Positions 2,436 through 63,123 of a stretch of DNA of 64,000 bases are shown piece by piece. The translations under genes and the position numbers were made by a program. The stretch comes from Eledone cirrhosa. Lineage: Eukaryota. The stretch is from contig OZ024742.1 of assembly GCA_964016885.1 (NCBI GenBank), positions 259,594,001 to 259,658,000 of the forward strand, in the 5' to 3' direction. The notes under the pieces are model-generated. The model was not told the origin of the DNA, searched no databases, and was given only the letters and a program-made list of their open reading frames with translations. Position 1 is the stretch's first letter, and the number at the start of each line of letters is the position of its first letter.

Positions 2436-3519
2436 CTTCGTCTTCGCCACTTATTCCTGAGAGAGTCGTAAGAGCAGATTCCTCAAACACTACTTCCAGC
2501 GGGTCCTGTCAAAAGAAACCGTCTCCATCTGATATGCCTGGATTCCCAGACGAGACCAGCCAAGCTCATAGATGTTGTCCAACCAACTTTCTCGGGGTCT
2601 GCCCCTGGTTCTCTTGCCGGTTGGTTTTGCCCTTAAACTCTGTCCAGCGATTCTTTTCTGAGATATTCTAACCACATTCCCATAGTATCGGAGCTGACTC
2701 TGATCTACGAGCTACACAGTCTATCGAGTAACCGGAGACCCTTCGAAGGAATCTCATATCAGCCGCTTGTATTTGCGACCGTATTCTTTCAATCATTACA
2801 CAAGTGTTGGCAGAATACCGAATTGAAGGTAGCGTGTTTGGCTTTTATACCTACCTCCCTTTTTCTGACGATAGAATGCTGAACCTGGGGCATTACTGCA
2901 CCAGTTGCTGCAATTCTTGCACTTACATCAGCCTCTTGGGATCGCTGATCAGCTTCTTGCTGCCCTGGTGTCTCTATACGAATGCCCAAATATTTGTGTT
3001 CGGATAAATGGCACTAAATGGAAATCATTAAATGTGGGAGTCGGAATCCATCAAAGGTGCGTACTTTCATCTCTCCTGTCCATTATTTACAAGGGCGGTG
3101 GATTGGCAGTATCGGTAGAGAGTCGGACGCCATGCTTTGTAGCAAGGAGTTACGGCTCTTTATAGTCTGAGTTCAAATCCCGCCGAGGTTAACTTTGCCT
3201 TTCATCATCAAAGGGTCTATAAAATAAAGTACCAGTAATACACTGGGATAAATGCTGGCTTTGTGCCAAAAGTAGAAACAATTATTTGCAGGAACAGGAT
3301 TGAAATGCGCAGCCAGATTGGAAGTGGCATCATGACTGGCGGTTATAATATCGTCATGATGTTACTTAACTCGACAGAAGGTAATTTCCGATGTGCACTC
3401 GGTAGGTTTGATGCCGAATTCTTCATGGCTGGAATGTAGTGCACTCTACTTGTGAATGAAGTTTCACTGAAACAGGTAGAGAAGTTTAAGTACCTCAGGG
3501 CCATTTTCTCTAGTGATGA
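2436..3519 (-). mobile_element. 5'-truncated RTE-clade LINE with 5' inversion
   Basis: Minus 2436-2937 gives QEADVSARI...RAKPTGKRTRGRPRESWLDNI. Plus 2938-3519 gives GIADQLLAALVSLY..VRING..GIHQRCVLSSLL..QVEKFKYLRAIFSSD. Candidate TSD is atgaataaa(ggt/aac)ttc at 2422 and 3516. Confidence 0.85.
3093..3287 (+). mobile_element. tRNA-derived CORE-SINE (octopus OR-like) inserted in the RTE
   Basis: A-box-like tggcagtatcgg, B-box gagttcaaatcc, CORE-like gcctttcatc..ataaaataaagtaccag, and tail agtagaaacaattatt. Confidence 0.85.
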
Positions 3520-4220: not shown

Positions 4221-4580
4221 AGTGAATTGGCAGTATCGGTAGAGGGTCGGACACCATGCTTTGACGCATAGAGTTACGGCTCTTGCCATTCTAAGTTCAA
4301 ATCCCGCCGAGGTTAACTTTGCCTTTCATCCTTATGGGGTCGATAATATAAAGTACCAGTAATGTACTGGTTAATTGCTGGCCTTGTGCCATAGTAGAAA
4401 CAATTATTTGTGGATAACGCTAGCCATGCTTTGATGCATAGCGTTACGGCCCTTGCCATTCTGAGTTCAAATCCCGCCGAGGTTAACTTTGCCTTTCACC
4501 CTTCCGGGGTCGATAAAATAAAGTACCAGTAATGAACTGGATAATTGCTGGCCTTGTCCCAAAAGTAGAAACAATTATTT
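4221..4580 (+). mobile_element. Two tandem CORE-SINE copies (4221-4409 and 4423-4580)
   Basis: Same head, CORE and tail as the 3093 copy. Confidence 0.85.
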
Positions 4581-8094: not shown

Positions 8095-8498
8095 ATTTAA
8101 AGATTAAACAAGGTTCAATGAATAAATCAAAGAATGAGTTTTACAATAGATTGGAAGCACTCCACAGGATTGGTTTTCCGGAGTAATTAATATTAATTCA
8201 AAATATTAACAAAAATAGACATTTGTGTGTTCAAATATTTTTTATTATACATATTTCAGAGGTACTGAGCTATCTTCAACAGTACGTCCTCATCAGATAA
8301 AATAAGATGATGCATGACATACCATGACTTAGTAGATGGTTAAGATTCAGTCATGGTATGACTGAATCTTAACTATGACTGGATCTTAACCATCTACTAA
8401 GTCAGGGTATGTCATGCATCATCTTATTTTATCTGATGAGGATGTACTGATAAAATATACTTGATCACACGATTGTCTATTTTTGTTAATATTTTGAA

Positions 8499-10509: not shown

Positions 10510-12533
10510 CTTCTTCTTCTCCTTCTTCTTCTTCTTTATAATATTATTGCTCGTAACGCTTTTGCTGTCAGATGGTATACATACACTATACCAAATGAGC
10601 GAGCCATAGCCGATGGCCATAGGTCCTTTGGGTCATTCCTTCTCCTTCAACTTTTCAACACCCCTCTTAGAGTCCTTCCTGTTCCTAACAAAGTTTTTTT
10701 TCTGCAGCAATCCCGTCCTAATGTCAATTCCTAGCTTCTCAAGCCATGCATCCAACATTTTACGTACTGCTCTCAGTGTGTCAACCATAGTCGATATCAC
10801 TTCTACGTGTTTGATTCTCCAAAGTTTCCTGATCTTTTTTGTCAGCTCCTGGTATTTCTTAACTTTATCATTTTCCTTCTCATTCATCCTGTGGTCCCAC
10901 GATGAAGCAATATCCACAAAAAAATTGCCTTGCTCTGCTTCTTCACTGTGACAACAATGTCTGGTTTTCTAACCACAATAAAATGGACGCACTGGATAGT
11001 CATGTCCCACAAGATCTTATACTGTTCATTTTCAGTGACCCTTTCCGGTTGTTCATACCATTTCTCACTTCAGCTGATATTATACATATGACAGCTTCCA
11101 TTGAAACAATCTGACAATGCTGTCGTGTCGTGCCTTCTCTTGCAAGCATTTGACATTCACTAATATTGTGGTTTATTGTCTCACCATTTCACCACACAGC
11201 CCACAATGTGAATAATTCACAGACTTGTCAATATTGAACTTGATATAGTTCGTTCTCAGTACCTGTTCCTGGGATTCGAAAATACGGGCCTCAGTTTCAA
11301 CTTTTAAGTCAATTTTCCTCGTCCATTCACAGTTCCTATCTTTGTCAACTGTCTCAGGCATTTCACATACGAACTGTCCATACATTTTTCCTTCCATCTA
11401 TTCAATGTGTCATTCTGTCTGTCTTGTTTGAATTCTCCATTTTCCTTTGTTTCATCACTGTTTAGTACCTTAATCTCTTTTACTCCTGGCATCAATCTCT
11501 GTTTTAAATTCTTTACATACCATGCCAGATTATATTCCTCCAACTTCACACACATTTCACGTCTAATGTGACCTCTTCGCCCTCTCTACCATGATAGATG
11601 ATACAACCGATCCACGTAACTTTGGTGTTGTGGGGCCCCTTGTAATGTCATCATTTTCCTGATTTTTCTGTCAACCTCCTTAAGTTCATCACATCTCAAC
11701 TCTATCACACCAATGCAATAACTTAGATCTTCAACAGCTCATGTTGATAGCTTGTATCTTATTCCTACCACTTAAATTCTTCTTTAACACCAACTCCAGT
11801 TCCGTTTATATTCCTTATCAAAGGTTTGTTACCAGGATGCCGAAGTACTTATACCCGTTGGCGGCAATTTCCTTCATAACTTGTCCGTCTGGTAATTTAA
11901 TTCCTTCCATCTTATCAAATCTACATCGCTTCAGTAGTAGCAACCCACACTTTTTTGTGCAAAATTCCATTCCTATGTCTGTACTGAATATATGAACTGT
12001 CTGTACAAGGGTAACAATATGTTCATATGATTTCTCATAAAATTTTACCTCATCCATGAACAACAGATGGTTTATCTTAAATTCGCGTCCTCCCCGCTCG
12101 TAACCAATCTTTGACCTCAACTCTAATGAAAGTTGAACCATACACAGTACAATCAGTAAAGGTGAAAGACTGTCTCTCTGACATATTCCTCTCTTGAAAT
12201 TCACAACTCCCAATGTTTGTCTACATGAGGTCAGTTCAGTTTTCCAACCATCCATACTGCTGACTAGAAACTGTCTAACGTTAGCTGCAATACCAAACAT
12301 TTTCAAACAAACTATTATCCAACTATGTCGCTCCATGTCGTAAACCTTGCAATAATCGATCCAGACCATGGCAAAATTTGTGTGTCTTCTTTTACAATAT
12401 TTAGGGATCATCATTTGATCCATAGTCCCCCGGCTTCTTATCTTACATCCCTTCTGCTTTGCAGATAGTGTCTACTTCAGGTATTTATACATTACATCAG
12501 CAAGGACACCTGTCATACGTTTCTACATAAGGG
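10510..12533 (-). mobile_element. R4/Dong-clade (RLE-type) non-LTR retrotransposon, 5'-truncated and degraded
   Basis: RT motifs [26 protein letters not shown] and [17 protein letters not shown] zinc knuckle, RHD motif, RLE KPDIV..DIASSWD..KENDKVKKYQEL, and a simple-repeat tail. Confidence 0.85.
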
Positions 12534-13617: not shown

Positions 13618-13955
13618 TAATAATTGTTTCTACTTTTGGCACAAGATCAGCAATTATCCCAGTGTATTACTGGTACTTTATTTTATTGACCCCGTAAGGA
13701 TGAAAGGCAAAGTTAACCTCGGCGGGATTTGAACTCAGATCATAAAGGGCCGTAACTCTTTGCTGCAAAGCATGGCGTCCGACCGTCTGATGATTTCTAC
13801 TATAGGCACGAAGCCAGAAATTTGGAGAGAGAGGTAAGTCGATTAAATCGACCTCATAGCGTCACTGGAGCTTTATTTATCGACTCCGTCCATAAGGATG
13901 AAAGGCAAAGCTAACTACAGCGGGATTTGAACTCAGAATGTAAACGCCCGTAACT
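13618..13955 (-). mobile_element. Two adjacent CORE-SINE copies, the second cut off by a (TA)n array
   Basis: CORE and B-box motifs on the minus strand. Confidence 0.85.
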
Positions 13956-14096: not shown

Positions 14097-14599
14097 AACA
14101 AGAAGTGTAAGTCAACAGGTTAAAATTAACTTCGTTTATTCATATTCGCTGCAATATATATTTCGGTGATAACCATAATTCAACAGCTATGACCTCATCA
14201 GGCAGCTACAACTTGAACAGAGACAACAGGGAAACATAATGGTGGGATAAATGTTACCTTGTTAATTCATTGATATGCCCAGATTCGAAATAATTAACAA
14301 CACTACATTTCGGATCTGGGCATATCAACAAGGCAAACTTTATTACACCATTATGTTTCCTTGTTTTTTGTTTTTTCTGTTCAAGTTGTAGCTGTCTGAT
14401 GAGGTCATAGCTGTTGAATTATGGTTATCCCCGAAATATATATGGCAGCGAATATGTTAATTTTAATAAGTTAATTTTAATCTGTTGACTTACACTTCTT
14501 GTGTTAAATTACTCCGGAGGAAACAGACCCACCTGCGCACTTCGTTGACTCTAACCTGCATACTGAAGTGTCGGTAAGCAGCCAACACAATCTCAAATG
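14097..14599 (+). mobile_element. PLE-derived fold-back element in (TA)n
   Basis: About 195 bp inverted arms at 14097-14292 and 14307-14503, with a tail at 14504-14599 and a hammerhead in each arm. Confidence 0.85.
14148..14206 (-). ncRNA. Hammerhead ribozyme motif
   Basis: Reverse complement is GCTGC CTGATGA GGTCATAGC..GTTATCACC GAAA TATATA TT^GCAGC. The mirror copy at 14391-14449 (+) has G at the cleavage position. Confidence 0.85.
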
Positions 14600-16760: not shown

Positions 16761-17162
16761 TTCGTTTCTGAATTTGTTTAGCAAGATTCTTTATCTGAAA
16801 TCGTGTGTTGAAACCGATATTGTTATACTTTGGGAGGGTCATGTTGCCAATAAGAAACACACGCACCAGTTGCTTTCACTTCAATTTATTATATATTTAT
16901 AAATTTACAAATTTATAAATATATAAATTTCTGGTTGGTTGGTTGGTTCCACAACCAGATAGTTGTTTATATATAGTCATAGTCATTTCGTCACACACTC
17001 TGTGACCTCTTCAGTGACATATAAACAACTATCTGGTTGTGGAACCAACCAACCAGAAATTTATAAATTTATAAATTTGTAAATTTATAAATATATAATA
17101 AATTGAAGTGAAAGCAACTGGTGCGTGTGTTTCTTATTGGCAACATGACCCTCCCAAAGTAT

Positions 17163-17170
<8 letters not shown>
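16761..17170 (-). mobile_element. PLE-derived fold-back element in (TA)n
   Basis: Near-perfect arms at 16817-16972 and 17019-17170, with a hammerhead in the loop. An older copy lies at 24571-25082, with fragments at 5470-5502 and 31872-32030. Confidence 0.85.
16976..17018 (-). ncRNA. Hammerhead ribozyme motif
   Basis: Reverse complement is GTCA CTGAAGA GGTCACA-GAGTG-TGTGAC GAAA TGAC TA^TGAC. Confidence 0.8.
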
Positions 17171-17612: not shown

Positions 17613-18454
17613 AAAATAAATTCATAATCTCTTCGCGCCGACGTTTTATTTTTCTTGGTGCAACACTTGCTTGTATATATATATACTCGTGTGATATATA
17701 CGGGCACGAGAATGAGCACTCAATACCCAAGTAGAGTTTAATGATATTCTTTATGATGGCTTGTCTGATGATCCTGTTATTTGTCAGGTGTAACTCTAGA
17801 GTAACTCGAGTCATCACCTAGCCATAATACAGAATATACAGGCACAGATATAGACACATACACAGACACACACACACACGCACAAACAAACAAACACAAA
17901 CACATATACACACACACACAAACACAAACGCATATACACACACAAACACAAACACATATACACACACACACACACAAACGCACACACAAATATATACATT
18001 GTTATTTATTTATTTGTGTTCGAGCCGAAGGGGCTGCGGCCATATATATATAGGGGTGATTCAAAATATCTGGCCCCATTTTTATTTTTGTTCACATAAT
18101 CATTTTTTTTACGAAATGCAATGAAACTCTGAATACATACATATCAAAATCGCTCTTCAAACTGATCACACGATTTCCACAAATATTTTTCAGTCGTTCT
18201 CGCGACTCACTGGAGGTGTAAGAGCTTCCTACGTTTTGCTAGAACCAGAACTTATTAGTGATGGGCACGTGGTCTATTGTTCCTTTTTGCTGTCTACAAG
18301 GTTTACCACATATAATTTTATGATTTTAGGAGTGACACCATTTTCTTCCACGAAGGGAGCGCCAATCAACACGCTCTTAGAAAAAGTAGTCCAGACTGTA
18401 CATGTAGCCGAGTAGAGAGATTTCACAGCCACTTCAGTCGGTTCTCTTAAAGTT

Positions 18455-18785: not shown

Positions 18786-19369
18786 AATGTATAATAAACA
18801 ATACAATATAATTACCTCATTACCAGAGGTTTCCCGAATAGAAGGTGTTGGGATATTCTTGATGGAGTAATCCAAATGATGTCTATCCATGTTCAGTATT
18901 GGTTAAAAATCCTTTTGACTGAAGAGTGCTCGATTTTAAAAGGGCGGAAAACCTCTGGTAATGAGGTAATTATATTGTATTGTTTATTATACATTAAATT
19001 TAGCTCTGTAACTGACATAGAGCACTCTTCACTCCTATGACTTTTTCAATTTTCAACGGAAACTTCAATACTTTTACAGCTCCCAAGAGAATGATCGTAG
19101 CATATTCTACATGTTTATGAGATTGGCACCTTCCAGCCCTTTTAAAGTCGAGCACTGTTCAGTCAAAAGGATTTTTAACCAATACTGAACATGGATAGAC
19201 ATCATTTGGATTACTCCATTAAGAATATCCCAACACCTTCTATTCGGGAAACCTCTGGTAATGAGGTAATTATATTGTATTTTTTATTATACATTAAATT
19301 TAGCTCTGTAACTTACATAGAGCACTCTTCACTCCTATGACTTTTTCAATTTTCAACGGAAACTTCAAT

Positions 19370-19515: not shown

Positions 19516-19627
19516 CCTGAGTTCAATCGGGGGTAACCACAGTAAGTAAGGTACTCAATACATAGCAGAGTATGAATTCCTTCGAGTGAAACAGTTCTAG
19601 TTATGTAGAAACCATTTATATATATAT

Positions 19628-19786
19628 AGGAAAAAGTAGTCCAGAAATAACCGTCGAAATGGCTTGAGCTCTGCCGTCGGGGTCTTGAACTTTTCCTATT
19701 ACCCACTCTACTACCCTAAGCATTGAGTACTCTCGTGCGATATGGTCCATCTGTTTCCTTACCACACTTCCTTCGTTATATATATA
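19628..19786 (+). mobile_element. TA-embedded PLE-like terminal fragment
   Basis: Homologous, in reverse orientation, to 53616-53802, and carries the ACTC..GAGTAC tail hairpin. Confidence 0.6.
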
Positions 19787-22332: not shown

Positions 22333-24572
22333 TCTACTTCGCTTACTTATTCTTCTGAGGGTCGTTGCGGCAGAGTCCTCAAACACACCTTCCAGCGAGT
22401 CCTGTGAGACGCAACCTTCTCCAACTGATCCGGCTGGGTTCCCAAGCGATACCAGCCGAGCTATGGATGTTATCCTACTATCCTTCTCGAGAAATACCCC
22501 TAGGTCTCCTACTGGTCGGTTTTGCGAATCTTTCCAGCGATTCTTTCCTGAGACATTCTAACTACATGCCTATAACAACGGAGCTGTGATCTCTCAATTC
22601 AGGGAACTAGCGGCTCTACCTAGAATGATTCTCTAATATCCGAGATACGCACTCTATTGACTAACGTTACTCCAAATACCATTCGGGGGAACTTCTTTTC
22701 GGTCGCTTTTATTCGCGATCGAATGTTTCATGAACATAGGTAAGGACTGGCACGAATACCAAATTAAAGATTTTTCTTCTGATTACCGAATGCTGAAGCT
22801 GACACATTACTCACCAGCTCCTGATATCTTGCACTTAATTCAGCCTCCTGCCTTCCATCACTCGTGAACACGGCCCCGAGATAATTGAACTTTTCCACCT
22901 GCTTCAGTAGAGTTCCATTCACATGTAATGTGCACTGCGCAGGCTTTCTTGAGACAACGAGAGTCTCAGTCTTCGCAGCACTGACTTTCATTCCAACTGT
23001 GCAGCACTTGGCATCAAAACTATCTACTGCATATAGATCAACTTCTGACAAATTAAAGAATGCCATGTCGTTTGGAAATTTCAACTAACTGATCCTACAC
23101 CCACCTGTCGTAATACCACTTCCAACTCTACTGCGCATGTTAATCCTGTACATGAAGATTATGACCAGGAGAGCTGACAGTACGCATCCTTGGCGAAGTT
23201 TGATCCCACTTTACATGATTTCGATTTAGCACGATTTATCCGAACACAAATATTCGGGCATTCGTATAGAGACATCAGGGCAACTAGAAACTGTATATTG
23301 ACCCCATACTCCTGTAGAGTCTTCCATAGCCTGTCCATTGAAACGGGATCGTATGCTTTTTAGAGGTCTACAAAGTTGAGAATACACCTCTTAGTACTGC
23401 TCCCATCATTTCTCAGAAACCTGTAGCAGTGTGCATATTTTGTCGGCTAGGCTGCCTCCGAGGCGAAAACCACACTGTTCGTCAGCTAACTTGGACTCGA
23501 CAATCTCCCTAAAACTCTTTCTTGCATACTTAACATAGACTTTACCGTCGAGGCTTAACAAGGATATCCCTCCGTAATTGAAGTAATATCTCTTGTCTGC
23601 CTTTTTGGAAGGAATGGTGATCCCAATCTAAATACAAATGGAGAGGCCTTATTAGATTTCTCTTCTTGCAATGAACTGATTGTGTTATTGTCTCTGAGCT
23701 CTGCGATTCTATGCTGGATAAAGTGGGAAGCCTGGGATTCAGTGGGATAAGATAGTGAGGACCAGGTAGGCAGATACTATTGCATCAAAATTCAGAAAAC
23801 CTCCTGCGCAGATCAAGGATGCTGAAACGGAATGAAGGCTCTTCAGTTCGGCAGTTTCTGGTTCAGCTCTTAAAATCTGCGAGCAAAAGCAGCTTGGTGT
23901 GATGTCGTACAGCAAGATGCCATCGGACCAAAGAAGGCGCCCTACAAACCTTGGTTGGAAATAATTCTCTTTCTTGAACTTGTAGTACAAGCAGATGCGA
24001 AAATGTGCAGCAGAGAGAGTAAAGGCGTCCAAAGTTAAAACATCGGAGGTCTTTGTCGTTAGGCTGAAATCCGACTTCAGATCAGCAAATACAGTGTTCT
24101 GGCACAGACCATCCGCCGACTTCGTAAAAAGAAGTACTACCCCATACAATGCGTTTGGAGTTCTCTCTTCAGAGAGGTGCATCATCACGGGGTGGAGAGA
24201 ATACTTTGTTGATCTCCTAAACCTGATCACAACATCTGATGTACATGAAGTGCATCTAGGAACGATGACTATTTTCCCGGAGGCTGAGGTCACAAGTGCA
24301 ATTAAAGTGCTCAAATGTGGCAAGACCGCTGGGGAGGATAAAATTCGGACAGCGATTTTAAAAGCCTTAAGTAGAGAAGGTATTATATGGCTAACTTGTG
24401 TGTTTCGGATGGCCAGAGTATCTGGAAACGCCCCTAAGTAATGGCAAACATGAGTGATAATTCCAATTGCCCACACGGGAGACAAGAAAGATTGCTCCAA
24501 TTTTAGAGGGATCTTCTTGTTAAGTGCCTGGCAAAGAGATGTGGGGTGATTATCAGATCCAAGTTAGCTGAT
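22333..24572 (-). mobile_element. RTE-clade LINE: 3' part on minus (22333-23620) joined to an inverted 5' part on plus (23620-24572)
   Basis: Minus gives GISLLSL..SKLADEQCGFR and QVEKFNYLGAVFTSDGRQEAELSAR. Plus gives NTNGEALLDF and WREYFVDLLN..EVTSAIKVLKCGKTAGEDKI..GDKKDCSNFRGI. Confidence 0.8.
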
Positions 24573-27442: not shown

Positions 27443-28592
27443 ATCATCATCATCATCATCATCATCATCACCGTTTTACGTCCGTTCTTCCACGCTAGCA
27501 TGGGTTAGACGGGTTGTCCTGTTGTGGGCAGTGTCTGGTCGGCTGACCATGCCTTGCTCATACAGGAACTGATCTGGCTTGATTTCTACAGCTGGATGCC
27601 CTTCCTAACACCAACCTCATTTACAGTGAGTGCTGGGTGCTTTTTCGTGGCGCCTACACGTCCACTTTACAGTGTGGGCTGGGTGCTTTTTTTGCCGTGG
27701 CACCTCCACGACCACCTTGCGCGGGGGGGGGGGCATATTGTCTATATGCTTCAGCTTGTACCCATGGGAGGTCGGGTACTCTGTATTACTGCGTGACGCC
27801 AGAAGTCACGGTCGTGTGTCATTGTCTTTGAGAGGTGTAATTGGGTAAGGTCGGCTTTTATCACCTCATCCCAGGTCATCTTGGGTCTCCCCACTCCGCG
27901 GTTTCCATCAACTTCTAGTGCTCTGCACCTTTTTATGCAGCTGTCATCCTTCATACGCATCACATGTCCATACCAGCGCAACCGCCTCTCCTGCACACAG
28001 CATTTGATTCCTCTTATGCTCAGTCTCTCTCTCAATTCATTTACGCTTTGTCGTTCACGTATATTATTGTTACACATCCATCGGAGCATGCAGGCTTCGT
28101 TTCTCTCTAATCTACGTAAGTCTTCCACCTTCAGCGCCCAGGTCTCACTACCATGCAACATCGCTGTTCGGATACACGCATCATACAGTCTGCCTTTCAT
28201 TCTGAGGGAGAAGCCTTTTGCAGCTAGCAGTGGTAGTAGTTCCCTAAACTTCTTCCATCCCGTTCTTACCCTAGTTATTGTACTTTCTGAGCACCCACCT
28301 CCGTTGCTAATTCGGTCACCTAGGTAGCAGAAGCTGTCTACTGTTTCTACAGGGCCCTCCCAGAGATTGGTGGTACTTGTTTCCTGTGGCTGCTTGCTGT
28401 CTCAGCACAGCTGCTGCATGTGAAACCTACATTATTAATTAAGCTTCCTGAGATCCCGCTACATCTCTTGTGTACCCATTGTTTGCATTTGGGGCAGAGA
28501 ATGGAGTTCCTACCTACACCTTTCCTACATACTGAGCAAGGCCATTTCCCTGAGGGGATCTAGGTTCTGTTTTCTCGTCTACTTACAAGGAC
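27443..28592 (-). mobile_element. RTE-clade LINE 3' portion with a PHD finger insertion and (GAT)n tail
   Basis: CSVCRKGVGRNSILCPKCKQWVHKRC..CSSC, then VDSFCYLGD..WKKFRELLPLL..LHGSETW..RLRWYGHVMR..GRPKMTW. Confidence 0.9.
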
Positions 28593-29846
28593 CTATATAT
28601 ATATAATATAAGATCAAAAGATGGTTAAAAGAGTTCCAAGTATTTTATTATGCGCATTTTATTATGAGCATTTCAAAAAAATATATCATCTGCGTTCTCA
28701 TCAGATAAAATAGGGAGACATGATATGAAGCTTAAAAAACACTTGTGAATAGTGAAGTTTTAAATCAATATATGAAAAATAAATTAAGATTGATGTATGA
28801 GATTGGGAAAAAGTGAGGGGGTTGGAAAAAGTAAGGAAGAGGAAGAAATAAGAGTAAAGAATGGTGGGGGAGGAGTATAAGAAGGAAGGATGAGAGAGGA
28901 GGAGAGATGGGTGATAGAGAGAGAGAGATAGCCTTTACAACTGAGAAAAAAATATTGTCTCACAGAGAGAAATTAAAAAGCCGTTGGAAGATAATAGATA
29001 ATTTAAAAGATTTTGAAATTAAAAGTTAATGAGGTTTATGCATGAAGAAAAAAGAATTAAGAATAGTATTAAATTAAGGTTTGTATATTGAAGGGTTTAA
29101 TAATATGTGCGAAGAAAAGAATTTATTAATATGTATTATTAAAATTAAAATATTAATGATATTAAGGGTATAATGTGAAAAGAAGGAGAAGAATGAATGA
29201 GTTATAAATTTAGAGGAATTAGTTAGGGTTTAAGTTTGTTTTTATGTAATGTAATATGTGTACGGAAATAGTTTGTTTAAAATGAGCGCGGAAGGAAAGA
29301 AGAAAAGAATGTTTAAGAAAGAAAATATCTAACATCAAAAAGTATATATGTTTACGAAATATTGTCTAATGGTAATAATATAATATATTAAAAGAGATTA
29401 GTTAGGGTTTAAGTTTGTTTTTATGTATTGTAATATGTAAAAGTCAAATTAAGTAGTAGGTTTAAAACGAGCATGAAAGGATGGAAGAGATATGAAAAAT
29501 TTAAGGAAGAAAAAATTTAACGTCAAAAGTTTATATGTTTACGAAGGACTTCTAATGGTAATATTATAATGTATTAAAAAATAATGTTTATGGCCATTGA
29601 TATGAGGAAAGATGGAAGAATGGATAATGTTGTGGTGAGTAATAATATGAATTGAGAAATAGTTGGGAAGAAAAAGTACAGATTAGAGGTTAGAAATTAA
29701 AAAGAAAAAAGGAAGAAAGGAAAATAATAAAGAGGAATGAAATAGAATGAGTAAATTGTATTATATAATATATAATACTGAAATAAGGTAGAAAGATAGG
29801 TATATTTGTAAAAGATATATAAGCCTTTGAGAAAAAGGATTTTAAA

Positions 29847-30300
29847 CTAGTAAGGTATTGAGATATTAGTTGTATACTTTATGGAATGTTCTATGGAATT
29901 TATGCAAGCAGAGAGAACAAATATTATTATAGAATTGAAATTAGATATAATGGTAAATTTCTCGGCTAGGCAGAGATTACATGTTCTGGATAGGGAAGAA
30001 TTCAGGTAAGGAAAGGCGGAGATGTTATAGTTAATATTTTTGTCTTTCAAGGACCATATGAGTTCCGAGAGTGCCGTGTTGGTTATTTTAAGTTGGTATT
30101 TAAAAGACGAATTGTGATTATAAAATCTAGCTTTGAAGGAAGTGGAAGTGGAACCGAAATAGGTAAAGGAATTGGTATCAGTTATAACCTTACATTCATG
30201 GACTAAGTTTTTATCAAGACAATGTTTATTAAGAGGACATTTAGTTTTAATAGGGCAATTACAAGTACGATTAGAGAAATTAACAGAGTTATTAACAAGT
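29847..30300 (-). pseudogene. PLE GIY-YIG endonuclease domain remnant
   Basis: CNCPIKTKCPLNKHCLDKNLVHEC..YFGSTSTSFKARFYNHNSSF..TALSELIWSLKD..CNLCLAEKFTII. Confidence 0.85.
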
Positions 30301-30735
30301 GACCTAGTGTTATTTATAGAAGGAATTTTCTTCGCACATATTATTAAACCCTTCAATATACAAAACTTAATTTATTACTATTCTTAATTCCTTTTTCTTC
30401 ATGCATAAACCTCATTAACTTTTAATTTCAAAATCTTTTAAATTATCTATTATCTTCCAACGGTTTTTTAATTTCTCTCTGTGAGAAAATATTTTTTTCT
30501 CAGTTGTAAAGGCTATCTCTCTCTCTATATATATCACCCATCTATCCTCCTCTCTCATCCTTCCTTCTTATACTCCTCCCCACCATCCTTTACTCTTAGT
30601 TCTTCCTCTTCCTTACTTTTTCCAACTCCCCTCAATTTTTCCCAATCTCATACATCAATCTTAATTTATTTTTCATATGTTGATTTAAAACTTCACTATT
30701 CACAAGTGTTTTTTAAGCTTCATATCATGTCTCCC

Positions 30736-30806
30736 TATTTTATCTGATGAGAATGCAGATATCATGCCATGTTGATATTTGTTTTTGAAATGCGCATAAT
30801 AAAATA
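30736..30806 (+). ncRNA. Hammerhead ribozyme
   Basis: TATTTTAT CTGATGA GAATGCAGATATCA..TGATATTTGTTTTT GAAA TGCGCA TA^ATAAAATA, with an 8 bp stem I and palindromic ATGCGCAT. Homologs lie at 28641-28712 (-) and 37971-38040 (-). Confidence 0.85.
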
Positions 30807-30925
30807 CTTGGAACTCTTTTAACCATCTTTTGATCTTATATTATTTATACTCCAGTCCTACAAACTGTAGAGTGCTACTTATGCGATATTTGCATTGCTT
30901 TATTGTGCTACAATAAAACTCACCT

Positions 30926-30969
<44 letters not shown>

Positions 30970-31458: not shown

Positions 31459-31493
<35 letters not shown>

Positions 31494-31552
31494 CCCAAGG
31501 CTCTGATACCATCAACACCATAAACACAGAGCTGGCATATCTAAGAATTGAC

Positions 31553-31606
31553 TTACTGCCTGATGAGGTCATAGCCATTCAATGGCTATCATCGAAATAG
31601 CAGTAA
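31553..31606 (+). ncRNA. Hammerhead motif with collapsed stem III, in TA-flanked element 31494-31650
   Basis: TTACTGC CTGATGA GGTCATAGCCATTCAATGGCTATCATC GAAA TA GCAGTAA. The homolog at 53462-53513 retains GAAATATATATA. Confidence 0.75.
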
Positions 31607-31674
31607 ATAAAGGATTATGAGTTCATGCAATTGACTTATGTTTCGTCACTATATATATATATATATATATATAT

Positions 31675-31821
31675 AATGTAGGAGGTGAGTTTTATTGTAG
31701 TACAATAAAGCAATGCAGATATCGGATAAGAAGCACTCTACAGTTTGTAGGACTGGAGTATGCATAATATAAGATCAAAAGATGGTTAATACATGGAACT
31801 CCTTTAACCATCTTTTGATCT

Positions 31822-31828
<7 letters not shown>
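31675..31828 (-). mobile_element. Miniature derivative of the 28605 PLE (tail plus short hairpin)
   Basis: Reverse complement of the 30844-30929 tail, plus the inverted pair taatataagatcaaaagatggttaa / ttaaccatcttttgatcttatatta. Confidence 0.85.
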
Positions 31829-31875
<47 letters not shown>

Positions 31876-35510: not shown

Positions 35511-35696
35511 ATAATTGTTTCTACTTTAGGCACAAGGCCAGCAATTATCCCAGGGTATAACTGGTACTTTATTTTATCGACCCCGTAAGGATGAAAGGCA
35601 AAGTTAACCTCGGCGGGATTTGAACTCAGTCTGTAAAGGGACGTAACTGTGCTGCAAAGCATGGCGTCCGACCCTCTACCGATACTGCCAATCCAC
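35511..35696 (-). mobile_element. CORE-SINE, full length
   Basis: Close match to the 3093 and 56069 copies. Confidence 0.9.
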
Positions 35697-37265
35697 ACAC
35701 ATAATGGGACTGAAAAAGGCAATGGTGGGTGACAAAAATTCAAAAGAATATATTATGAATTATTTTCCAAATCGATTTGACAAAACTCTAAGTATTTTTT
35801 ATGATATTGTTGCTGTTGGCATTGCTGTTTGTTGAACAATCGTAAAAAAAAAGAAATTGAGGTTCTAGACGTGATCAATAATTCGGGTTAATATATAAAA
35901 CTAAATTAACGAATGTTTTCATTGTTAAAAATGACTATTTTGTAATATGAAAATGATTTGGCTACTATTTCTAGTACGTTCAGTCACCACAGAGATGCTC
36001 CTTTTCTTGGTTCCAATTGTAAATGTTATATACATGAAAGGTGATCTCTGATCGCATTAAGACGCCAAATATTCTCGTGGTATCTGCCAGTATCTGTATA
36101 GCCGCCATTTTAAAATCACGCGCAAGCCTTGAATACTGAGATCTCCAGGAATGAATACATGAATAAATAAATATATAATACGTAAATAGATATTTCCCAT
36201 TGCGGTTATATTTTTTTAATTCAATTTTACAATTGCCAGCATTTTGAAAGTGTAGGGTTTCTCAAAGTATAATTGTTTTATTAAAATAAAACAATGAAAC
36301 GCATCAATTTCCGGTTTTACATGCAATAAGATTTGCTATATCCTATGCATCTAGGTTGTATGAATAGAAAACATAGCATGGCCAAACGGTTAAGAAGTTC
36401 GGATCACAATTATAAGGTCCTGTGTTCAATCCTAACAGCATGAAATCATAGGAAACTGTCTTATCAGAAGAATTCAAAGAATTAGAAATGGAACATTCAT
36501 ATATACGAATGCATCTATGTTTCCAAACAAATTACAGAAGGCATGAAGTAATGCATATTTTATTACAAACTTCTTATATCAAAATTTCATTAGAAGTGAG
36601 GCACACATCTTTCCAGTTATTATTATTATTATTTATTTTCATTTAATCATGTGCAAGACACGTGATAGTTTCATGACTTAAATATGATAAATATATAACA
36701 CGCAAATTAATGGTAGCTGTTGTTGGTAATAATGATGTATGCAGCATAGCTGCGCGGTAAAGAATCTCACTTTGTAATCACGTAGCTCCGGGTTCAGTCT
36801 TGATGTAAGGCAACTTGAGCAAATATCTTCTACAATAACCTTGGGATGACCAATACTTTCTGAACGCAGTTTCGTAGATGAAAAATGCAAAAGCCCGTCA
36901 TATGTATATATATATATATATATGTGTAACTTAAGTAAGTTAATTATTATAATTTTCTTATTTTACGTCTTTCATATAATTGTTCTACATGTTTGTATTG
37001 AACCACAAAGTTACTAAGACAAAAACTATATCTTGCTAGCATAAGTATACTTCTGTATAAATACGTTGGTAGATATACTAATTCTTTATATATATATAGA
37101 GAGAGAGAGATAGATATGTGTGTGATAACGTTTCGCAACCTACCAGTAATAGGTAACTAGCCGAAACCGCCGAGCTCACGGTAAATCCTCTACTTTCACT
37201 AATATATTCCTTCCATATACTGTACCGATTGTGTTCTTATTTCTGTTTATATATATATATATATA

Positions 37266-37918
37266 GGTTTTAATATAGAAGAGATTCTACAGGACTAGAA
37301 CTGTTTCATTCGTGAGAAATCATCAGGAATCTCACTGTTCAAGTAAATATGTTGCTATTTATATCTTTTCTGGTGGTAGGAGAGGGTGGTTAGGTCGTTG
37401 GTTGAAAGAAAAGGGAATTTATTATAGAATTCTTTCTGCCTTTGTCACTCTAAGTAAAGCTTTAAAGAATTAGCTTTTAAAGAATTCCCCTTTCTTTAAA
37501 CCCATCAACCATGACTGACCTCCAACCATCTTATAGACACCTGAAATATAGGCATTGTTAGCTTAAGAGGAACTTAAAAATAAGGAGTGGCACTCCAATT
37601 TGAACTTGTTTATAGAATTCTTTCTGCCTTTGTCACTCTGAATATAAATTATAGCTTTAAAGAATTAGCTTTTAATGAATTCCCTTTTTTTTTCAACCAA
37701 TGACCTCCACCCATCCCACTCCCCAGCCTCTCCTACCGCCAGAAAAGATATAAATAACACCATATTTACTTGAACAGTCAGATTCTTGATGATTTCTCAC
37801 GAAAGAAACAGTTCAAGTCCTGTAGAATCTCTTCTATATTAAAACCTTTATACTCTGCTATGTATTGAGTACCTTACTTACTGTTGTTACCTCCGATTCA
37901 ACCCGGAATAATTTACCT
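37266..37918 (+). mobile_element. PLE-derived fold-back element in (TA)n
   Basis: Arms at about 37266-37420 and 37676-37847, with a tail at 37848-37918 (also at 19512-19572). Hammerhead-like CTGATGA TTTCTCACGAAT GAAA CAGTTC at 37293-37331 (-), with a mirror copy at 37781-37819. Confidence 0.8.
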
Positions 37919-39659: not shown

Positions 39660-40716
39660 TGTGTGTGCGTATGTATGTAATGTACAACGTGAGTATACAC
39701 TCACAATTAAAAGGACTCAATACTAGACGCAGAGCAATATAAATAAATAGTTTAAATCATGTCATAGAGACAGTTCTAGATTACGAATGACTGCAGTGTC
39801 ATCTGGCGAATTTACAAAATCGCAATAAAGACCACTTGTAGAAATATTGCTTATATAAAAGAGAAAGTGGAAGAGTGGTAATAGGGAGTAATATATAATA
39901 AGTCGGTTAGAATGGAAAAATAGTGTAGGTAGCTATAGAGCTAGTATAATAAAATCATTGAATTAGACAGCTCAGGATATACAAGTTAATTATATGTAAG
40001 AATAAAAATAATATATGTTAAATAAAGTTAATAAAATAGACTGCAATAAAATAAGCTAAACTAAATGGAATTATATGAGAACTGAATAAAAAATATACTC
40101 ACGGATATGGAATGGAATTCTTGTGGTTTCGACGATGAGTGTTCTATTAAGTTAATCAATGGAAAAATCTATTCATGTAATTCAACAACCCATAAGTGAC
40201 TATTAATTCCACAGACACCTGTAGTCTTGACTTAATTCTCAAGGAGATTCAGTGTCGCACGGTGTACGGCAGGGCTGGTTAGCTGGCTCATTCTATTACA
40301 TGTGTAGTCCATCCGACGGGCTTCCAAACGGTTTCTGTCAACTCAGTGTCACTCATATGATATGGGTCGTATCTAGGCTACATATGAAATTTCGTGACTC
40401 AGTGTTTAGAATGTTGGATTCTCATTGACCGGTCTGGGGCTGTGTCCTACAACAAGAGACTTTATTTCACATTGCTCTAGTTCATTCAGCTGTAGAAATG
40501 AGTTGCGATGCCACTGGTGCCTAGCGATATCAACCTTTGTCTCTCTCTTAGACAAATCGGTGGCGTGAAGAGGGAAGAAGGCTGGTCTTCCACGAAAACA
40601 CCTTGGCAGGGCCTGTACCTCGAAGGGGAACTAGCTAAATGCAAATCTCATGAGCATTCGTAACCGAATGAGGTCTTTATTTATATATATATGTACGTAT
40701 ATATATATGGTGGGGG

Positions 40717-44545: not shown

Positions 44546-44720
44546 ATAATTGTTTCTACTTTTGGCACAAGGTCATCAATTAACCAGTACATTACTGGTA
44601 CTTTATTTTATCGACCCCGTAAGGATAAAAGGCAAAGTTAACCTCGGCGGGATTTGAACTCAGACCGTAAAGGGAGGACGTAACTATGCTGGAAAGCATG
44701 GCGTCCGACTCTCTACCGAT
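44546..44720 (-). mobile_element. CORE-SINE
   Basis: Close match to the other copies. Confidence 0.9.
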
Positions 44721-51892: not shown

Positions 51893-51935
<43 letters not shown>

Positions 51936-51938
<3 letters not shown>

Positions 51939-52172
51939 AAGAATTAGTATATCTACCAACATATATATACAGATGCATACCTATGCTAGCAAATATATAG
52001 GTTTTGTCTTAGTAACTTTGTGGTTCAATGCAAGGGGATGCAGAACAATTATATGAAAGACGTAAAATAAGAAAATTATAAAAGTTAACTTACTAAAATT
52101 TCACTCCAACTAATTAGTTGGAGTGAAATTTTAGTAAGTAAGTTAATTTCTATAATTTTCTTATTTTACGTC

Positions 52173-52180
<8 letters not shown>
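51936..52180 (-). mobile_element. Tail plus near-perfect 130 bp palindrome in (TA)n
   Basis: The palindrome at 52051-52180 is centred on ccaactaattagttgg. A homolog lies at 36928-37088. Confidence 0.8.
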
Positions 52181-52237
<57 letters not shown>

Positions 52238-52242
<5 letters not shown>

Positions 52243-52516
52243 ATAAATTAACGGAGCCAAGACTCTCGTTAGTCCCTGTCAATAAGGTGCTCAAAGGAAA
52301 AGGAATCCTGAGCTCTTTAAAATACAATATGTTGAAAAGGTAACACACTAGAGAGAGATAGTGCGTCATCAATAAAACAGGGAAAACCACCAGTGTAAGG
52401 AATCTATAATCTATATAATCTAATTTCATAGATTATAGATTCCGTACATTGGTGGTTTTCCTTGTTTTATTGATGGCGCACTATCTCTCACTAGTGTGTT
52501 ACCTTTTCAACATATT

Positions 52517-53449: not shown

Positions 53450-53820
53450 ATATATATATATATGATGAGGTCATTGCCATACAATGGGTATCATCGAAAT
53501 ATATATAGCGGTATGACCTCCTCAGGCAGTCAGTAAGTTCTTAGATATGCCAGCTCTGGGTTTTGGGTGTTGATGGCTTTAGAGCCTTGGGACATATATA
53601 TATATATATTTATATAACAAAGAGCGTGTGGTTAGATAGGAAGTAGACCATAGCGCACCAGAGTACTCTAATTAGGGTAGTAGAGTGGATAATAGGAAAA
53701 GAGTCAGGACCTCGAACGCTACAAAAATGCTACAATCAAATTGTTCGGCTCTAGCTGTCGAGCCGGCCGGAGCTCAGCCATTAGGGTCCTGAATCTTTTG
53801 CTATATATATATATATATAT

Positions 53821-55463
53821 AGAAGTGGTTACACAACAGTTAGTTCACCATACCGAGAACAATTGTTTCACCTTAGCGGGTTATCAACTCGTAATGGGCA
53901 TGGTTATACGGAACAGGAAGGACAACCGTACGAACGCGCATGCGCAGAAACCCGTCACTTCACACAGGCAATACTAAAATGCGTGCGAGAGGTGTAAGGG
54001 AGATAACTGCGAAAGTTCGAAAAGTTTTTAGTAGATAAGAAAAAATATTGATGTTGTTAGAATAATTCATTCAATCCGGAGCTTTGTAGTCATGCAATAG
54101 GTATTTCGAGACGTGTGGACAACGTGTGAAATATTCATTTCTCGTGTTTAGGCAATTACTATTGCATAATCCCTTTAGAATATTTATTCGTTCGTCAATA
54201 CACAGTCCACACGACGGATTTCCCCTTGCGTATGGCTTGGACTTAGTGATGGCTTTCCATTGAATGGAGTAGTCTATACTTGAGTCCTTGAGGGACCATA
54301 CGTGGCTCGCGAGTTTCGTATATGAACCGGGTAGCTAAAGGTCGACTGATGGTTCAGGAAACGTTCCTTAAATCGGCCCTCCGCCATGCCCACATAGGAT
54401 TTGACTCCTGTGGTTGGTTTGGTCGGTTGGAAGTGACCACAGCTTCATAAATTACAGCTGGTGTGTTGCAACAACAGCAATAAGAAAAGAAAGCGCAACA
54501 ATAGACAAACTATCTGGTTCTCTCCTCGCTTCTCACTCAACGTTACAACTAATGTAGGCAAAAGATTTCTAGCTCTCTTAGACACTTTCCCATAGGTCAT
54601 AAATACCGCTCCATCTTTAACCGACACAAAGTAAAACTAGGATACTCCTGCGCTAAGAACATGAAGGCCTACATCACCAGCAACCCTAGGAGCAACACCC
54701 CACCAGGGTGCTCTTGCCGTAAGCCCTAAGATTTCCCCCTTCAACAGCAATGCAACACACCAGCTTATGAAGTTGTGGTCACTTCCAACCGACCAAACCA
54801 ACAACAGGAGGTCAAATCCTATGTGGGCATGGCGGAGGGCCGATTTAAGTAACGTTTCCTGAACCATCAGTCGACCTTTAGCTACACGGACAGACGTTCA
54901 TCCACGAAACTCGCGAGCCACGTATGGTCCCTCAAGGACTCAAGTATAGACTACTCCAGTCAATGGAAAGCCATCACTAAGTCCAAACCATACGCAAGGG
55001 GAAATCCGTCGTGTGGACTGTGTATTGACGAACAAATAAATATTCTAAAGCGATTATGCAATAGTGATTGCCTAAACACGAGAAATGAATTTTTCACACG
55101 TTGTGCACACGTCTCGAAACACTTATTGCATAACTACAAAGCTCCAGATTGAATGAATTATTCTAACAACATCAATATTTTTCTTATCAACTAAAAACTT
55201 TTCGGACTTTCGCAGTTATCTCCCTTACACCTCTCGCACGCATTTTAGTATTGCCTGTGTGAAGTGACGGGTTTCTGCGCATGCGCGTTCGTACGGTTGT
55301 CCTTCCTGTTCCGTATAACCATGCCCATTACGAGTTGATAACCCGCTAAGGTGAAACAATTGTTCTCGGTATGGTGAACTAACTATTGTGTAACCACTTC
55401 TACCTAACTCGTCCAATGGACTGAGTGCTCTACCACTACGGATATTACCTTCCAGTGTTCTAC

Positions 55464-55923: not shown

Positions 55924-56260
55924 TCTGAGTTCAAGTACCACCGAGGTTAGCTCTTTACCCTTCATCCTTACGAGGTCGATAAAATAAAGACCAGTTACGC
56001 ACTGGGGTTGATTTACTCGACTTTCTCCTCCCCGCAAATTGCTGGCCTTGTGCCTATAGTAGAAACCGTGGGCAGTGGATTGGCAGTATCGGTAGAGGGT
56101 CGGACGCCATGCTTTCCAGCATAGTTACGTCCCTTTACGATCTGAGTTCAAATCCCGCCGAGGTTGACTTTGCCTTTCATCCTTACGGGGTCGATAAAAT
56201 AAAGTACCAGTAATGCACTGGGTAATTGCTGGCCTTGTGCCTAAAGTAGAAACAATTATT
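55924..56260 (+). mobile_element. Two CORE-SINE copies (55924-56066 and 56069-56260)
   Basis: Head, B-box, CORE and tail motifs. Confidence 0.9.
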
Positions 56261-56449
56261 AACATTATGTGCAATAATGATTTCTTGTTGGCCACTAGGG
56301 CCGCCATAACAAGGCCAGAGTCAAACCTCATCACAGAACACTTTATATTTTTGTTTTCACCTTCTCACCTTGTCACTCTCTCTCTTATTCAATATTTGAC
56401 CTTGTGTTTAGTCATACGGAATTATACTCTCAGTGATTTATATGTACAT

Positions 56450-57304
56450 TGTTCATCACCATCAACATTATCACAATTATTATCCTTTCATCATCATCAC
56501 CATCATTTTCATCATCACCATCGTCATCCTCATCATCATCATCATCATTATCATCATCATTTTCATTGCCATAAACATCATCATCATCAACATCATCATC
56601 AACATCATCATCAACATCATCATCATCATCACCATATACACCAAGTTCGAAAGGCTCATTCACTTGTAGATAGTCAAACCCCTTCGTGTCATTACACCTC
56701 ACATCGCCACCTGCTGTACCCACTTCTCACTTCACCACACCTCACATCATCACCCCTGACACTACTATGATTGTTTATCATCATAACACCAAAGTGTGTT
56801 TGTTGTTGTTGCTGTTGTTGTTTTGTTATCTATCACCTACTATTCTTCCCCATTGTTTCCAGCGACACCATCACTACCAACGATACCAACATCATCCCCA
56901 CCACCACTCGCACCACCAGTGACACCATCACTACCAACAACACCAACGTCAACTATCATCATCATAATCATCATCATCAACAACATCATTCCACCACTAC
57001 CACCACCACCATGACTATCAGTTACACCAATAACATTATCATCAACACAACAACATCCACCCCAACAATACCAACAACATCAACACCAACAATATCAACA
57101 AAATCAACAACAACTACATCACCAATACCAATGTTATCAACAACAAAAACAACATCATCACCACCACTATCACCACTTCTAAGAACATCACTAATATAAC
57201 ATCACAGCTAACAACAACAATATCACCAACAACATTATCATCATCATTACCAAATAACAATATCACAACCAACAACAAAAACATCATCACCACCCGCCAC
57301 CACT
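56450..57304. repeat. Degenerate (CAT)n/(CAA)n/(CAC)n low-complexity tract
   Basis: Directly visible. Confidence 0.85.
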
Positions 57305-57492
57305 AATAATTGTTTCTACTTTTGGCACAAGGCCAGCAATTACCCAGTACATTACTGGTAGTTTTTTTATCGACCCCGTAAGGATGAAAGGCAAAGTTAA
57401 CCTCGACGGGACTTGAACTCAAACCGTAAAGGGACGTACACGTAACTATGCTAGAAAGCATGGCGTCCAACTCTCTACCAATACTGCCAAAC
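57305..57492 (-). mobile_element. CORE-SINE
   Basis: Close match to the other copies. Confidence 0.9.
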
Positions 57493-59139
57493 CACTAACA
57501 CTAACAAGTATAAATAACACCTTACAACATCATTACAAGGATAGTTTCCCATATATTTCGATGGTCTTCACACAAATCTAACGAACGAGTAAAATAGCAA
57601 AACAACTGGAAATACTATTTCTATGTTTGTCTGTCAGCGATGAAATGATGAATCGTTAGATCTCTGTCACTGCTTGCTTTCAACTATAAAGCTTAATGCT
57701 TTGATCTCTCAGCCTCGCCGCATCCATTCAATGTCACTTACTGATATATTCTACCCTTTGATAAATCGCTTACTTATCTTTCTGGTAGCCATTTTGTGTT
57801 AAGCCATTCTGGTTGACTAATGACCAAACAGATAGGCTGTCACGTGACTGCTTAGATTTTCTAGTTAAATCCATTAGGTAGTTTGAAAATACTTCACTGT
57901 AACATTACTTGACAATATAGATAGAAAAGGTAGTATCATACGTTACTTGGAGTTATAGGTTTGCTAGATAGATTATATTCATCGTTGTGACAATTTAGAA
58001 TGCAGTTTACCTACAGCATTGACTGACTCCATAATATTACTGGTACTTATATTAGAATGGAGCTTGCTGGATTACGGGATTCGACACAAAAACGTATAAA
58101 CTTATGTTCGATTCCTAACGACGCGTTGTGTCTGAGCAAAATACTTTATTTCACGTTGCTCAACTAGCAAACTTAAGTTGTACCTGTAATTCAAAGGGTC
58201 AATTTGTCACTCATTATGTTACATTCAATTTCCAACAAGTAGAGCTTGTTTTTGTAGACCTCCGTCTCAATCCCAATCGCAGTAGTTAGGGAGATGGTTC
58301 GGGTTCTCAGGAAACCAGTTAAATCCACCGTTATGAGTTCCACGATATACCCATCAGAAAGCGGCCGACATCTTGCCTGGGTTTCACAATATTTATTTTA
58401 AAAATTTCACATTTAAACGCTAGTGTGCATTCCATGCTACTGCCAGATAACAATGTTAGATTACAAAGAAACATTTATGTTCTTTTAACAGAAAATTGTT
58501 GTAAAGATAAATATTCTTCGTAGAAAAACTTATAAAACTAAACAACAATTTAGGCTTTAAAAGTACATGAAATTTTTAAAGACTTTTTAATTTTGTTTGT
58601 TCAGATTCTAATATCTTTTATTATTATATATCGGTCTTTTATTTTCTATTTATTTTTATATCCTCCCCCTCTTCTTTAGATATATCGTTACTTCAATAGA
58701 AGAAAAATACACAAACAATATAAGTGAATATTAATTGTAATGATTTCATCTGTTTTGTTATGATTCTGACAATTGTGTCCGAGTGATTGTGTCTGAGTGA
58801 TAAGAATTACAAACAAAAATATCATTCACAATATTGAAATTAAAATCGAAGGAAGGAGGGAAGGAAGAAACAAAATATAAAACAAAAATGTATTCAGCAT
58901 CATTATTTACTGAACCATATGAATTATTTTTCTTTTTCTAATTGTCTTGAATAATTACACTGTTGTTTCTTCTTTACTTCTTCATTGTTAGCAGAAATAT
59001 TTTTCATTTTTTTAATCATTTTTATTTTAGTTTCAGTTTCCAATAATTATCAAATTTGAACAATTTGATTAATTATTGAAAACTAAAGTCGCTGCTAACT
59101 GAGTCAATAAGATATCGGCCTATTGACCTAATGGCTGAT

Positions 59140-62609: not shown

Positions 62610-63123
62610 TCTGAGTGAAGTTGTACGGAAAAGGAAAATCAACCGTGTATATATATATATATATATATAGTAGAATAATCGAGTATCGAAAAATCGGCGC
62701 ACGAGTTCACGATAAACAAAATTCGAGATGAGCGGCAGAGGGCTCTATAATTCAAATAAATTAGAGCTATAACTATCGTTAAATACCGTCACACGTAGAA
62801 TATGTCTACAATCAACCAAATAACCGATAAGTTCGATATGGAAGATTCGGGACACTCAGATAAATTATCAATAAATGAATAAATGAAATGAATGTAAAAT
62901 GCATACCCGGACCCACTAGAGAGATGGAATATCTAGCTTCTTGGGTTTCTGTAAATCCTTAAACCGTCATCTATCAGCTCATATAAAAATATAAGACTTA
63001 CATATGGCGGGGGACTGGAGTTACTTTATCAACGAGCTTCGTCCGAATGGATAGAAAGATAAGACCCATGCTAAAAATACGCGCATGGATTTCAGCAAGG
63101 GAGATAACCTTTATATCCGCAAA

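Follow-up and report, generated by a model that had tools for sequence, protein, structure and literature searches.

The reverse transcriptases (RTs) of Penelope-like elements (PLEs) are placed as sister to TERT (PMC8557442). Two questions about PLEs are open in the field, namely what determines template choice and how insertions come to have inverted arms plus a one-sided tail; on these we found one in vitro study of a single element. In that study, of the Poseidon element PAc of Anolis carolinensis (Frangieh et al. 2024, PMC11167929), the purified protein is described as starting reverse transcription at two internal RNA sites in a stem-loop, equal to the ends of the tail, and as cutting and extending both strands, with hammerhead cleavage dispensable and a dimer predicted. 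A second group, the Hydra elements, is defined by Craig et al. 2021 (PMC8557442) by features that include an RWK motif, a change of DKG to DKT, a CxCX5C linker, the absence of CCHH, and CxxC and CxH motifs. Here, we describe a short bulged hairpin in the leader of Hydra-clade PLEs, found in a 64,000-nucleotide (nt) stretch of Eledone cirrhosa DNA (contig OZ024742.1, positions 259,594,001 to 259,658,000; the window) and in loci sampled from the same genome (G000; L numbers mark loci sampled from it and from metagenomes). The tail, the inverted architecture, the Hydra elements and two-site initiation in PAc were known already; the duplicated, clade-wide cis-element that predicts both PLE ends is real and apparently new to description, and from its sequence context it would serve in RT recognition.

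A sequence-only reading of the window had reported a fold consisting of RYTC, an inner stem-loop, a T-N bulge and GARY, located a few nt past the end of the inverted arm and downstream of a hammerhead, and this pattern was verified at 12/12 of the sites it cited. In the insertion that provides the type example, belonging to a family that we call A, the direct arm ends at 30841 and the hairpin begins at 30849, downstream of a predicted hammerhead in the pseudo-long terminal repeat (pLTR). Each copy of the hairpin forms part of a cassette comprising UA, about 4 nt, a helix of 4 base pairs (bp), a U-N bulge, an inner helix whose cap varies freely, and a conserved 3' flank.

Family A is, by its protein motifs, a Hydra-clade PLE. 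One open reading frame (ORF) of less than 3 kb, with open frames of 715-805 amino acids (aa) in L031, L032 and L034, encodes an RT together with a C-terminal GIY-YIG endonuclease, with a protein 29-40% identical to the 120 homologues listed; a Pfam search of the Hydra protein gave no match. RW-I/R/K and DKT motifs occur across the G000 families, with RWI in family A, and the L034 protein, read directly, contains the CxCX5C linker, CxxC before E and CxH after N, and no CCHH. The TA junctions of the family indicate (TA)n insertion, and its ends are bimodal, with the tail on one side. The G000 elements resemble the C-terminal endonuclease-bearing (EN+) Hydra PLEs of Craig et al. 2021 (PMC8557442) in protein motifs, hammerhead, (TA)n insertion, and a pLTR with an inverted copy and a one-sided tail. 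A six-frame profile search of the window itself returned no match, although an endonuclease fragment is present there, and the ORF links given below were taken from longer loci.

The sequence-only reading had recognized one hairpin per element. This is the first of two copies (HP1); the second (HP2), which it missed, sits just past the long end and is absent from ordinary truncated insertions. Full-length elements carry both hairpins between the hammerhead and the start codon, in the 5' untranslated region (UTR), with HP1 about 70-105 nt after the hammerhead core. The start codon mostly follows HP2 by 34-70 nt and HP1 by 93-137 nt. In full-length family A copies (L031, L034), the tail is 5' UTR, and HP2 starts 6-8 nt past the long end. 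Strict counting in 25 complete UTRs yields two copies in 18, three in 1 and one in 6, and a variant second copy is visible by eye in five of the six single-copy UTRs.

Both element ends track these hairpins, each copy lying some 5-8 nt beyond one of the two. Across six G000 families, 197 of 226 TA-junction ends fall 2-13 nt 5' of HP1 or HP2 (the count covers ends that carry a microsatellite and leaves out family F3, which cross-matches F2). The offsets have modes mostly at -6 to -10 despite a hairpin spacing of 71-101 nt, and other TA sites in the UTR are rarely used as ends. The ends agree at both hairpins in families H and M and at HP2 only in family K. A profile of 42 proteins gave a further sample of 77 metagenome loci, which nucleotide clustering sorts into 59 families; here, 13 of 16 ends lie 0-4 nt before the hairpin, counted from the last aligned base, and the others lie at +4, -21 and -83. 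Of 83 hairpins in 39 families, 41 have a UA beginning at -6 and 73 have one within -8 to -5, compared with 27 within -18 to -15. Inverted insertions of hairpin-bearing families combine one short and one long end in every case (83/83, two of which duplicate window sites and among which L032 and L033 look like duplicates of each other). Separately, some metagenome Hydra copies (L120, L125, L136, L146) end outside long (TA)n runs, and their final matching base still coincides with, or adjoins, the A of a UA around -5.

The sequence around the hairpin is otherwise unalignable, as the sequence-only reading had stated, with 10 UTRs sharing no blastn match, and inner stems that differ between families nevertheless stay paired. 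In a covariation test anchored on primary sequence only, with mis-anchored rows kept, inner positions 1-3 are paired in 63, 50 and 40 of 70 non-redundant sites, against shuffle means of 48, 29 and 20 (maxima 55, 40 and 31 in 2000 shuffles, which take no account of relatedness). Inner positions 2 and 3 use all four Watson-Crick pairs, and the outer pairs also vary on both sides, as G-C, A-U and U-A. Among the 267 cells of a chosen alignment that is biased in favor of the structure, 98.9% are paired, with 65 double changes against 18.6 in shuffles, and the only invariant pairs are the U-A and C-G adjoining the bulge. The bulge always starts with U, which the anchors require in the first test and which is invariant in the chosen alignment. 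This between-family covariation is strong evidence for the fold, whereas the within-family change is weak evidence alone: the compensatory variant proposed for family H does exist, at 36982, but as a singleton among 14 pattern-matching family copies, and it carries little weight.

Hairpin caps range from 4 nt to over 100 nt. Insertions of 65-105 nt, folded or of low complexity, can sit in the cap with the bulged helix kept, as on the minus strand of L299, some 290 nt ahead of where the ORF begins, and at 19079-19153 of the window, which suggests that the cap is not read. The first inner pair differs by copy, being C-G in 37 of 39 HP2 sites and U-A in 25 of 44 HP1 sites (L111-L187), hinting that the two sites are not equivalent.

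The pattern is more frequent than expected by chance. Evenly spaced G000 regions totaling 340 kb contain 33 strict matches, against 1-8 (mean 5.6) in 10 microsatellite-preserving shuffles, an enrichment of about 6-fold; a (TA)n run lies 35-102 nt downstream of 20 of these matches and within 109 nt upstream of 4. A covariance model trained on 40 chosen copies finds 44 matches in 600 kb of G000 regions outside the training set, 31 with a microsatellite 25-110 nt downstream and 9 with one upstream, which extrapolates to a G000 total of about 2 x 10^5 hairpin copies. The window holds four minus-strand copies beyond those that the sequence-only reading cited (62742-62767, 17718-17737, 39715-39735 and 53665-53686). 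Window matches at 55362, 53860, 17811 and 48486 are hammerhead-adjacent or lack positional context and were not taken as true copies. Other hammerhead-bearing, TA-flanked inverted families in the window (14098-14502, 31493-31649 and 53464-53592) show no hairpin match. Window repeats were found by masked self-blast, as a plain repeat finder was swamped by microsatellites.

The hairpin extends well beyond this genome, to Hydra-clade elements of many marine animals. It appears as UA-N4-GCUC-[stem-loop]-UN-GAGC-ACU in 39 Hydra families from marine metagenomes. Outside ORFs of the metagenome loci, the pattern occurs 40 times on the sense and 7 times on the antisense strand, compared with 16 and 24 inside ORFs, and in the 48 metagenome loci outside training, 49 of 51 model matches lie on the sense strand. 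Among six published Hydra consensi, perfect copies are seen by eye in those of the coral element Hydra-2_Amil and the sea-cucumber elements Hydra-1_Ajap (twice) and Hydra-2_Ajap, and a variant motif in Hydra-1_Crog. Five 9-mer 3' strands compared with the supplement of Craig et al. gave seven matches, four in Hydra UTR hairpins and three scattered in the far larger Naiad and Chlamys files.

The sequence-only reading had regarded the hairpin-bearing families as unrelated, and this view does not hold. Of its eight families, six link to Hydra-clade ORFs; of the remaining two, one is a non-coding tandem bearing a hammerhead and the other (8159) lacks a linked ORF. Hydra N-termini tie to the families at 19303, 37852 and 19705, and Hydra C-termini to the families with hairpins at 52289, 55407 and 62767. 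Since their ORFs link to the Hydra clade, with N-termini 28-69% identical, these families are relatives. A non-Hydra TA-targeting PLE of G000, with a CCHH-type endonuclease, shows no model match in the tail and start region of 10 long copies, 3 of which have an intact 5' region, and two other non-Hydra families have no motif by eye. The stronger model matches checked in non-Hydra loci belong to neighboring Hydra-type insertions, with the two weakest left uninspected. A general TA-targeting PLE motif is therefore rejected: because six of eight families link to Hydra ORFs and the non-Hydra TA-targeting PLE lacks it, the hairpin is a Hydra-clade trait. The non-Hydra family (L308:1420-1530 on the plus strand, L313 and L317, with a window copy at 16761-17170) has a frame of more than 900 aa and a tail at the ORF start, similar to PAc, and both of its ends precede the same 6-7 nt (AATATCG), possibly a duplicated start signal of that clade's own.

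Family H (52023 and 36982) is an abundant non-coding 528-bp tandem repeat with no long sense-strand ORF, each repeat of which carries a hammerhead core with a long stem II by eye, a predicted ribozyme. It keeps both hairpins, both ends and PLE-type inverted insertions (L267:6744-7935; window 51931-52181 and 36952-37090). A non-coding tandem unit with a predicted hammerhead in every repeat makes family H retrozyme-like, and its hairpins are a candidate cis signal for PLE mobilization.

On the sequence evidence, we think it fairly probable that the duplicated leader hairpin is an RNA docking site, positioning the Hydra RT to start copying just 5' of the hairpin. The element protein, probably dimeric, would bind both bulged helices, and the endonuclease would cut both DNA strands at TA. 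As TA is self-complementary, the cut TA 3' end could then pair with the template UA about 5 nt upstream of the helix, so that the two DNA ends would prime complementary DNA (cDNA) synthesis, one at site 1 and the other at site 2. Joining of the two cDNAs would yield an inverted repeat with a one-sided tail, whose length would be set by the hairpin spacing, and non-coding hammerhead tandems that keep both cassettes would be mobilized in trans. By analogy, PAc offers a precedent for two-site internal initiation. A more specific version, for which we would claim slightly less than even chances, is that UA plus the bulged docking helix constitutes a duplicated initiation cassette, with which a dimeric, telomerase-related RT primes both TA-cut strands at once in a programmed form of twin priming. 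If true, programmed twin priming would explain inverted, one-sided-tail PLE insertions and retrozyme hitchhiking, and the cassette would amount to a telomerase-like module of minimal size for positioning the template, conserved across animal phyla.

Several observations weigh against docking on RNA. PAc, the precedent, belongs to a different clade, its AC-rich stem-loop is unrelated, and it is described as initiating at a site lacking homology to the cut DNA, whereas the Hydra model uses TA microhomology (PMC11167929). The non-Hydra family follows the same rule of one short and one long end (11/11) without the Hydra hairpin. In F2 and F3 (L226, L219), the second site precedes a plain GCAC/GTGC hairpin that lacks the bulge, although the long end still lies 7-9 nt before it. 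Of the six published consensi, Hydra-1_Amil shows only a weak match and Hydra-1_Obim no motif by eye. Minimum-energy folds of eight whole UTRs make the intended partner best for 8 of 16 hairpins and pair 3 across copies. Finally, sequence-anchored sites contain 17 G-U pairs against 16 A-C mismatches, and a sense-strand comparison of 16 G-U with 6 A-C (p ~0.05, from non-independent copies) lends weak support to RNA. Because G-U pairs barely outnumber A-C mismatches, RNA and DNA are only weakly distinguished. The sequence-only reading had left this choice open in proposing a cis-acting RNA or single-stranded DNA element for RT recognition or priming. A conserved, covarying fold tied to the arm boundary is most likely such an RT signal, with the choice of nucleic acid still weakly resolved.

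The rival that survives best, although we judge it unlikely, has the hairpins act in DNA, single-stranded or extruded, where the GIY-YIG endonuclease would bind them, cut TA 5-6 nt upstream and resolve longer-than-unit cDNA into short and long ends. Craig et al. 2021 ascribe the tail to endonuclease resolution (PMC8557442), and earlier work cited by Frangieh et al. has the Drosophila virilis endonuclease needing the tail for recognition (PMC11167929). TA targeting by the endonuclease would also conserve TA, and the pairs are nearly all Watson-Crick, with 1 G-U among 267 cells of the chosen alignment. The span of cap lengths, however, excludes a fixed-geometry duplex site, the motif is strand-specific with a slight sense-strand excess of G-U, and PAc tail ends are reported to coincide with RT start sites in vitro (PMC11167929).

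Less likely still is RNA cleavage at the upstream UA, directed by the hairpins and carried out by the RNA itself or a host nuclease, which would create two 3' ends for ordinary 3'-terminal priming. The ends are indeed sharp and at UA, and PLE RNAs already contain ribozymes, but among the Rfam matches listed no ribozyme covers the hairpin, whose conserved core is only about 13 nt, and PAc is described as initiating on unprocessed RNA whatever 3' sequence is added (PMC11167929). The strict rule of one short and one long end is also harder to obtain from independently cut RNAs. A role in translation or transcription, such as cap-independent initiation after hammerhead cleavage, with ends nearby only through AT-rich TA sites, appears quite improbable: it would account for the 5' UTR location of both hairpins and their fairly constant start-codon distances, but not for their retention in non-coding family H or for ends that follow each hairpin at a fixed offset while other UTR TA sites go largely unused. 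Neutral shared ancestry or chance without structural constraint can be set aside as very improbable, for although Hydra-clade kinship links the families, the motif is a short one, and G000 counts include many same-family copies, the UTRs are unalignable, inner pairs take all four Watson-Crick forms, shuffles give about one-sixth of the matches, and the motif is kept across 39 metagenome families.

Table 1. Hairpins and associated features in window coordinates. Minus-strand hairpins are given from their low plus-strand ends, e.g. 31735-31759 and 52289-52313.
Feature	Position	Strand	Remarks
HP1 of Hydra family A	30849..30873	+	4-bp outer helix, TA bulge, 4-bp inner stem, 7-nt loop
Family A tail	30842..30928	+	short end to long end
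Hammerhead core in pLTR	30744..30790	+	105 nt upstream of HP1; pattern scan, predicted ribozyme
Inverted arm of family A insertion	28606..29118	-	stops at short end just before HP1
Hydra-type GIY-YIG endonuclease fragment	29847..30371	-	with CxCX5C linker
HP1 of family A in minimal insertion	31735..31759	-	160-bp insertion (31674-31834; one long and one short end)
HP1 of Hydra family F16	19003..19023	+	internal copy
HP2 of Hydra family F16	19079..19153	+	additional long-looped copy of second type; ~65-nt apical domain between conserved strands; missed by the sequence-only reading
HP1 of Hydra family F16	19303..19323	+	in tail
HP1 of Hydra family F2	19553..19571	-	
HP1 of Hydra family F2	37852..37870	+	
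HP1 of Hydra family F18	19705..19728	+	
Further HP1, F18 type	53665..53686	-	
HP1 of family G	52289..52313	-	Hydra ORF upstream in L100
HP1 of family H	52023..52046	-	
HP1 of family H	36982..37003	+	singleton stem variant
HP1 of family I	55407..55426	+	1-nt bulge; Hydra ORF upstream in L060, L287
HP1 of family J	8159..8184	-	hammerhead present, no linked ORF
HP1 of family K	62742..62767	-	Hydra ORF upstream in L102; uncited in the sequence-only reading
Hairpin copy outside named families	17718..17737	-	31 nt before TA run
Hairpin copy outside named families	39715..39735	-	before TA run

Two other kinds of feature were seen in the window. Frames resembling RT fragments of the long interspersed element (LINE; non-LTR) type, by eye, lie on the minus strand at 11818-12471, 22764-23084, 27751-28401 and 10633-10968. 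A dispersed repeat of about 190 bp, resembling a short interspersed element, has at least seven copies (3098-3286, 4221-4408, 13618-13788, 35511-35696, 44551-44720, 56074-56261 and 57304-57496).

Searches of Rfam, including the RT-1 to RT-19 families and ribozymes, placed none over 30849 among the 150 listed of 267 window matches, those listed being microsatellite-driven microRNA and small nucleolar RNA matches below the gathering score; 20 metagenome loci gave four matches, none to the hairpin. The searched open literature, including Hydra, hammerhead and retrozyme papers, contained no description of the hairpin, with subscription papers, Repbase and Dfam notes and figure images outside its scope. 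The words "hairpin" and "stem-loop" are absent from the main text of Craig et al. 2021, and the motif is present, unremarked, in its consensus file (PMC8557442). Family H resembles the non-LTR retrozymes (PMC7229834; bioRxiv 10.64898/2026.07.22.740005) in being a non-coding tandem with a type I-like hammerhead core, and exceeds the 150-450 bp described for them in the text of these sources; the available text of the preprint makes no mention of a hairpin, stem-loop or tail.

With PAc, the Hydra elements share two ends, a one-sided tail, a stem-loop downstream of the hammerhead, AT-rich targets and, as described for PAc, extension of both strands (Frangieh et al. 2024, PMC11167929). The single stem-loop of PAc is AC-rich and lies within the ORF, the published description gives no conserved motif, and the tails measure 30-40 nt (PMC11167929). 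The Hydra elements, in contrast, carry a clade-wide bulged helix duplicated in the 5' UTR, one copy being situated 3' of either end, with a conserved UA at -6 and tails of about 50-140 nt. Where PAc initiates in an AC-rich stem-loop within the ORF, Hydra ends fall in the 5' UTR, on the 5' side of a hairpin that is built differently. The hairpin is short and recurs across phyla, and it predicts both ends within a few bases; it offers precise mutational targets for distinguishing RT initiation from endonuclease resolution, and could be used as a diagnostic for Hydra elements and their non-autonomous partners.

Selection of a template by RNA structure, shared by partner elements, is familiar from stringent LINE RTs, such as those of eel UnaL2 and of R2 with its 3' UTR, which recognize 3' stem-loops, and L1 twin priming illustrates that two primers can give inversion. 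The LINE 3' structures lie upstream of the start and are copied, whereas the Hydra hairpin lies 3' of the start and would go uncopied in that event, and the two arms are copies of one sequence. In hepatitis B virus (HBV) epsilon and in telomerase RNA, a bulged stem or flanking helix positions the RT. The analogy to HBV epsilon drawn by the sequence-only reading is a poor fit: rather than inside the bulge, Hydra ends map at a UA 2-13 nt 5' of the helix base, with no sign of protein priming within the bulge. As in telomerase, a microsatellite primer might pair with a short stretch of template. For the RT family nearest to telomerase, the hairpin is a candidate RNA handle of minimal size.
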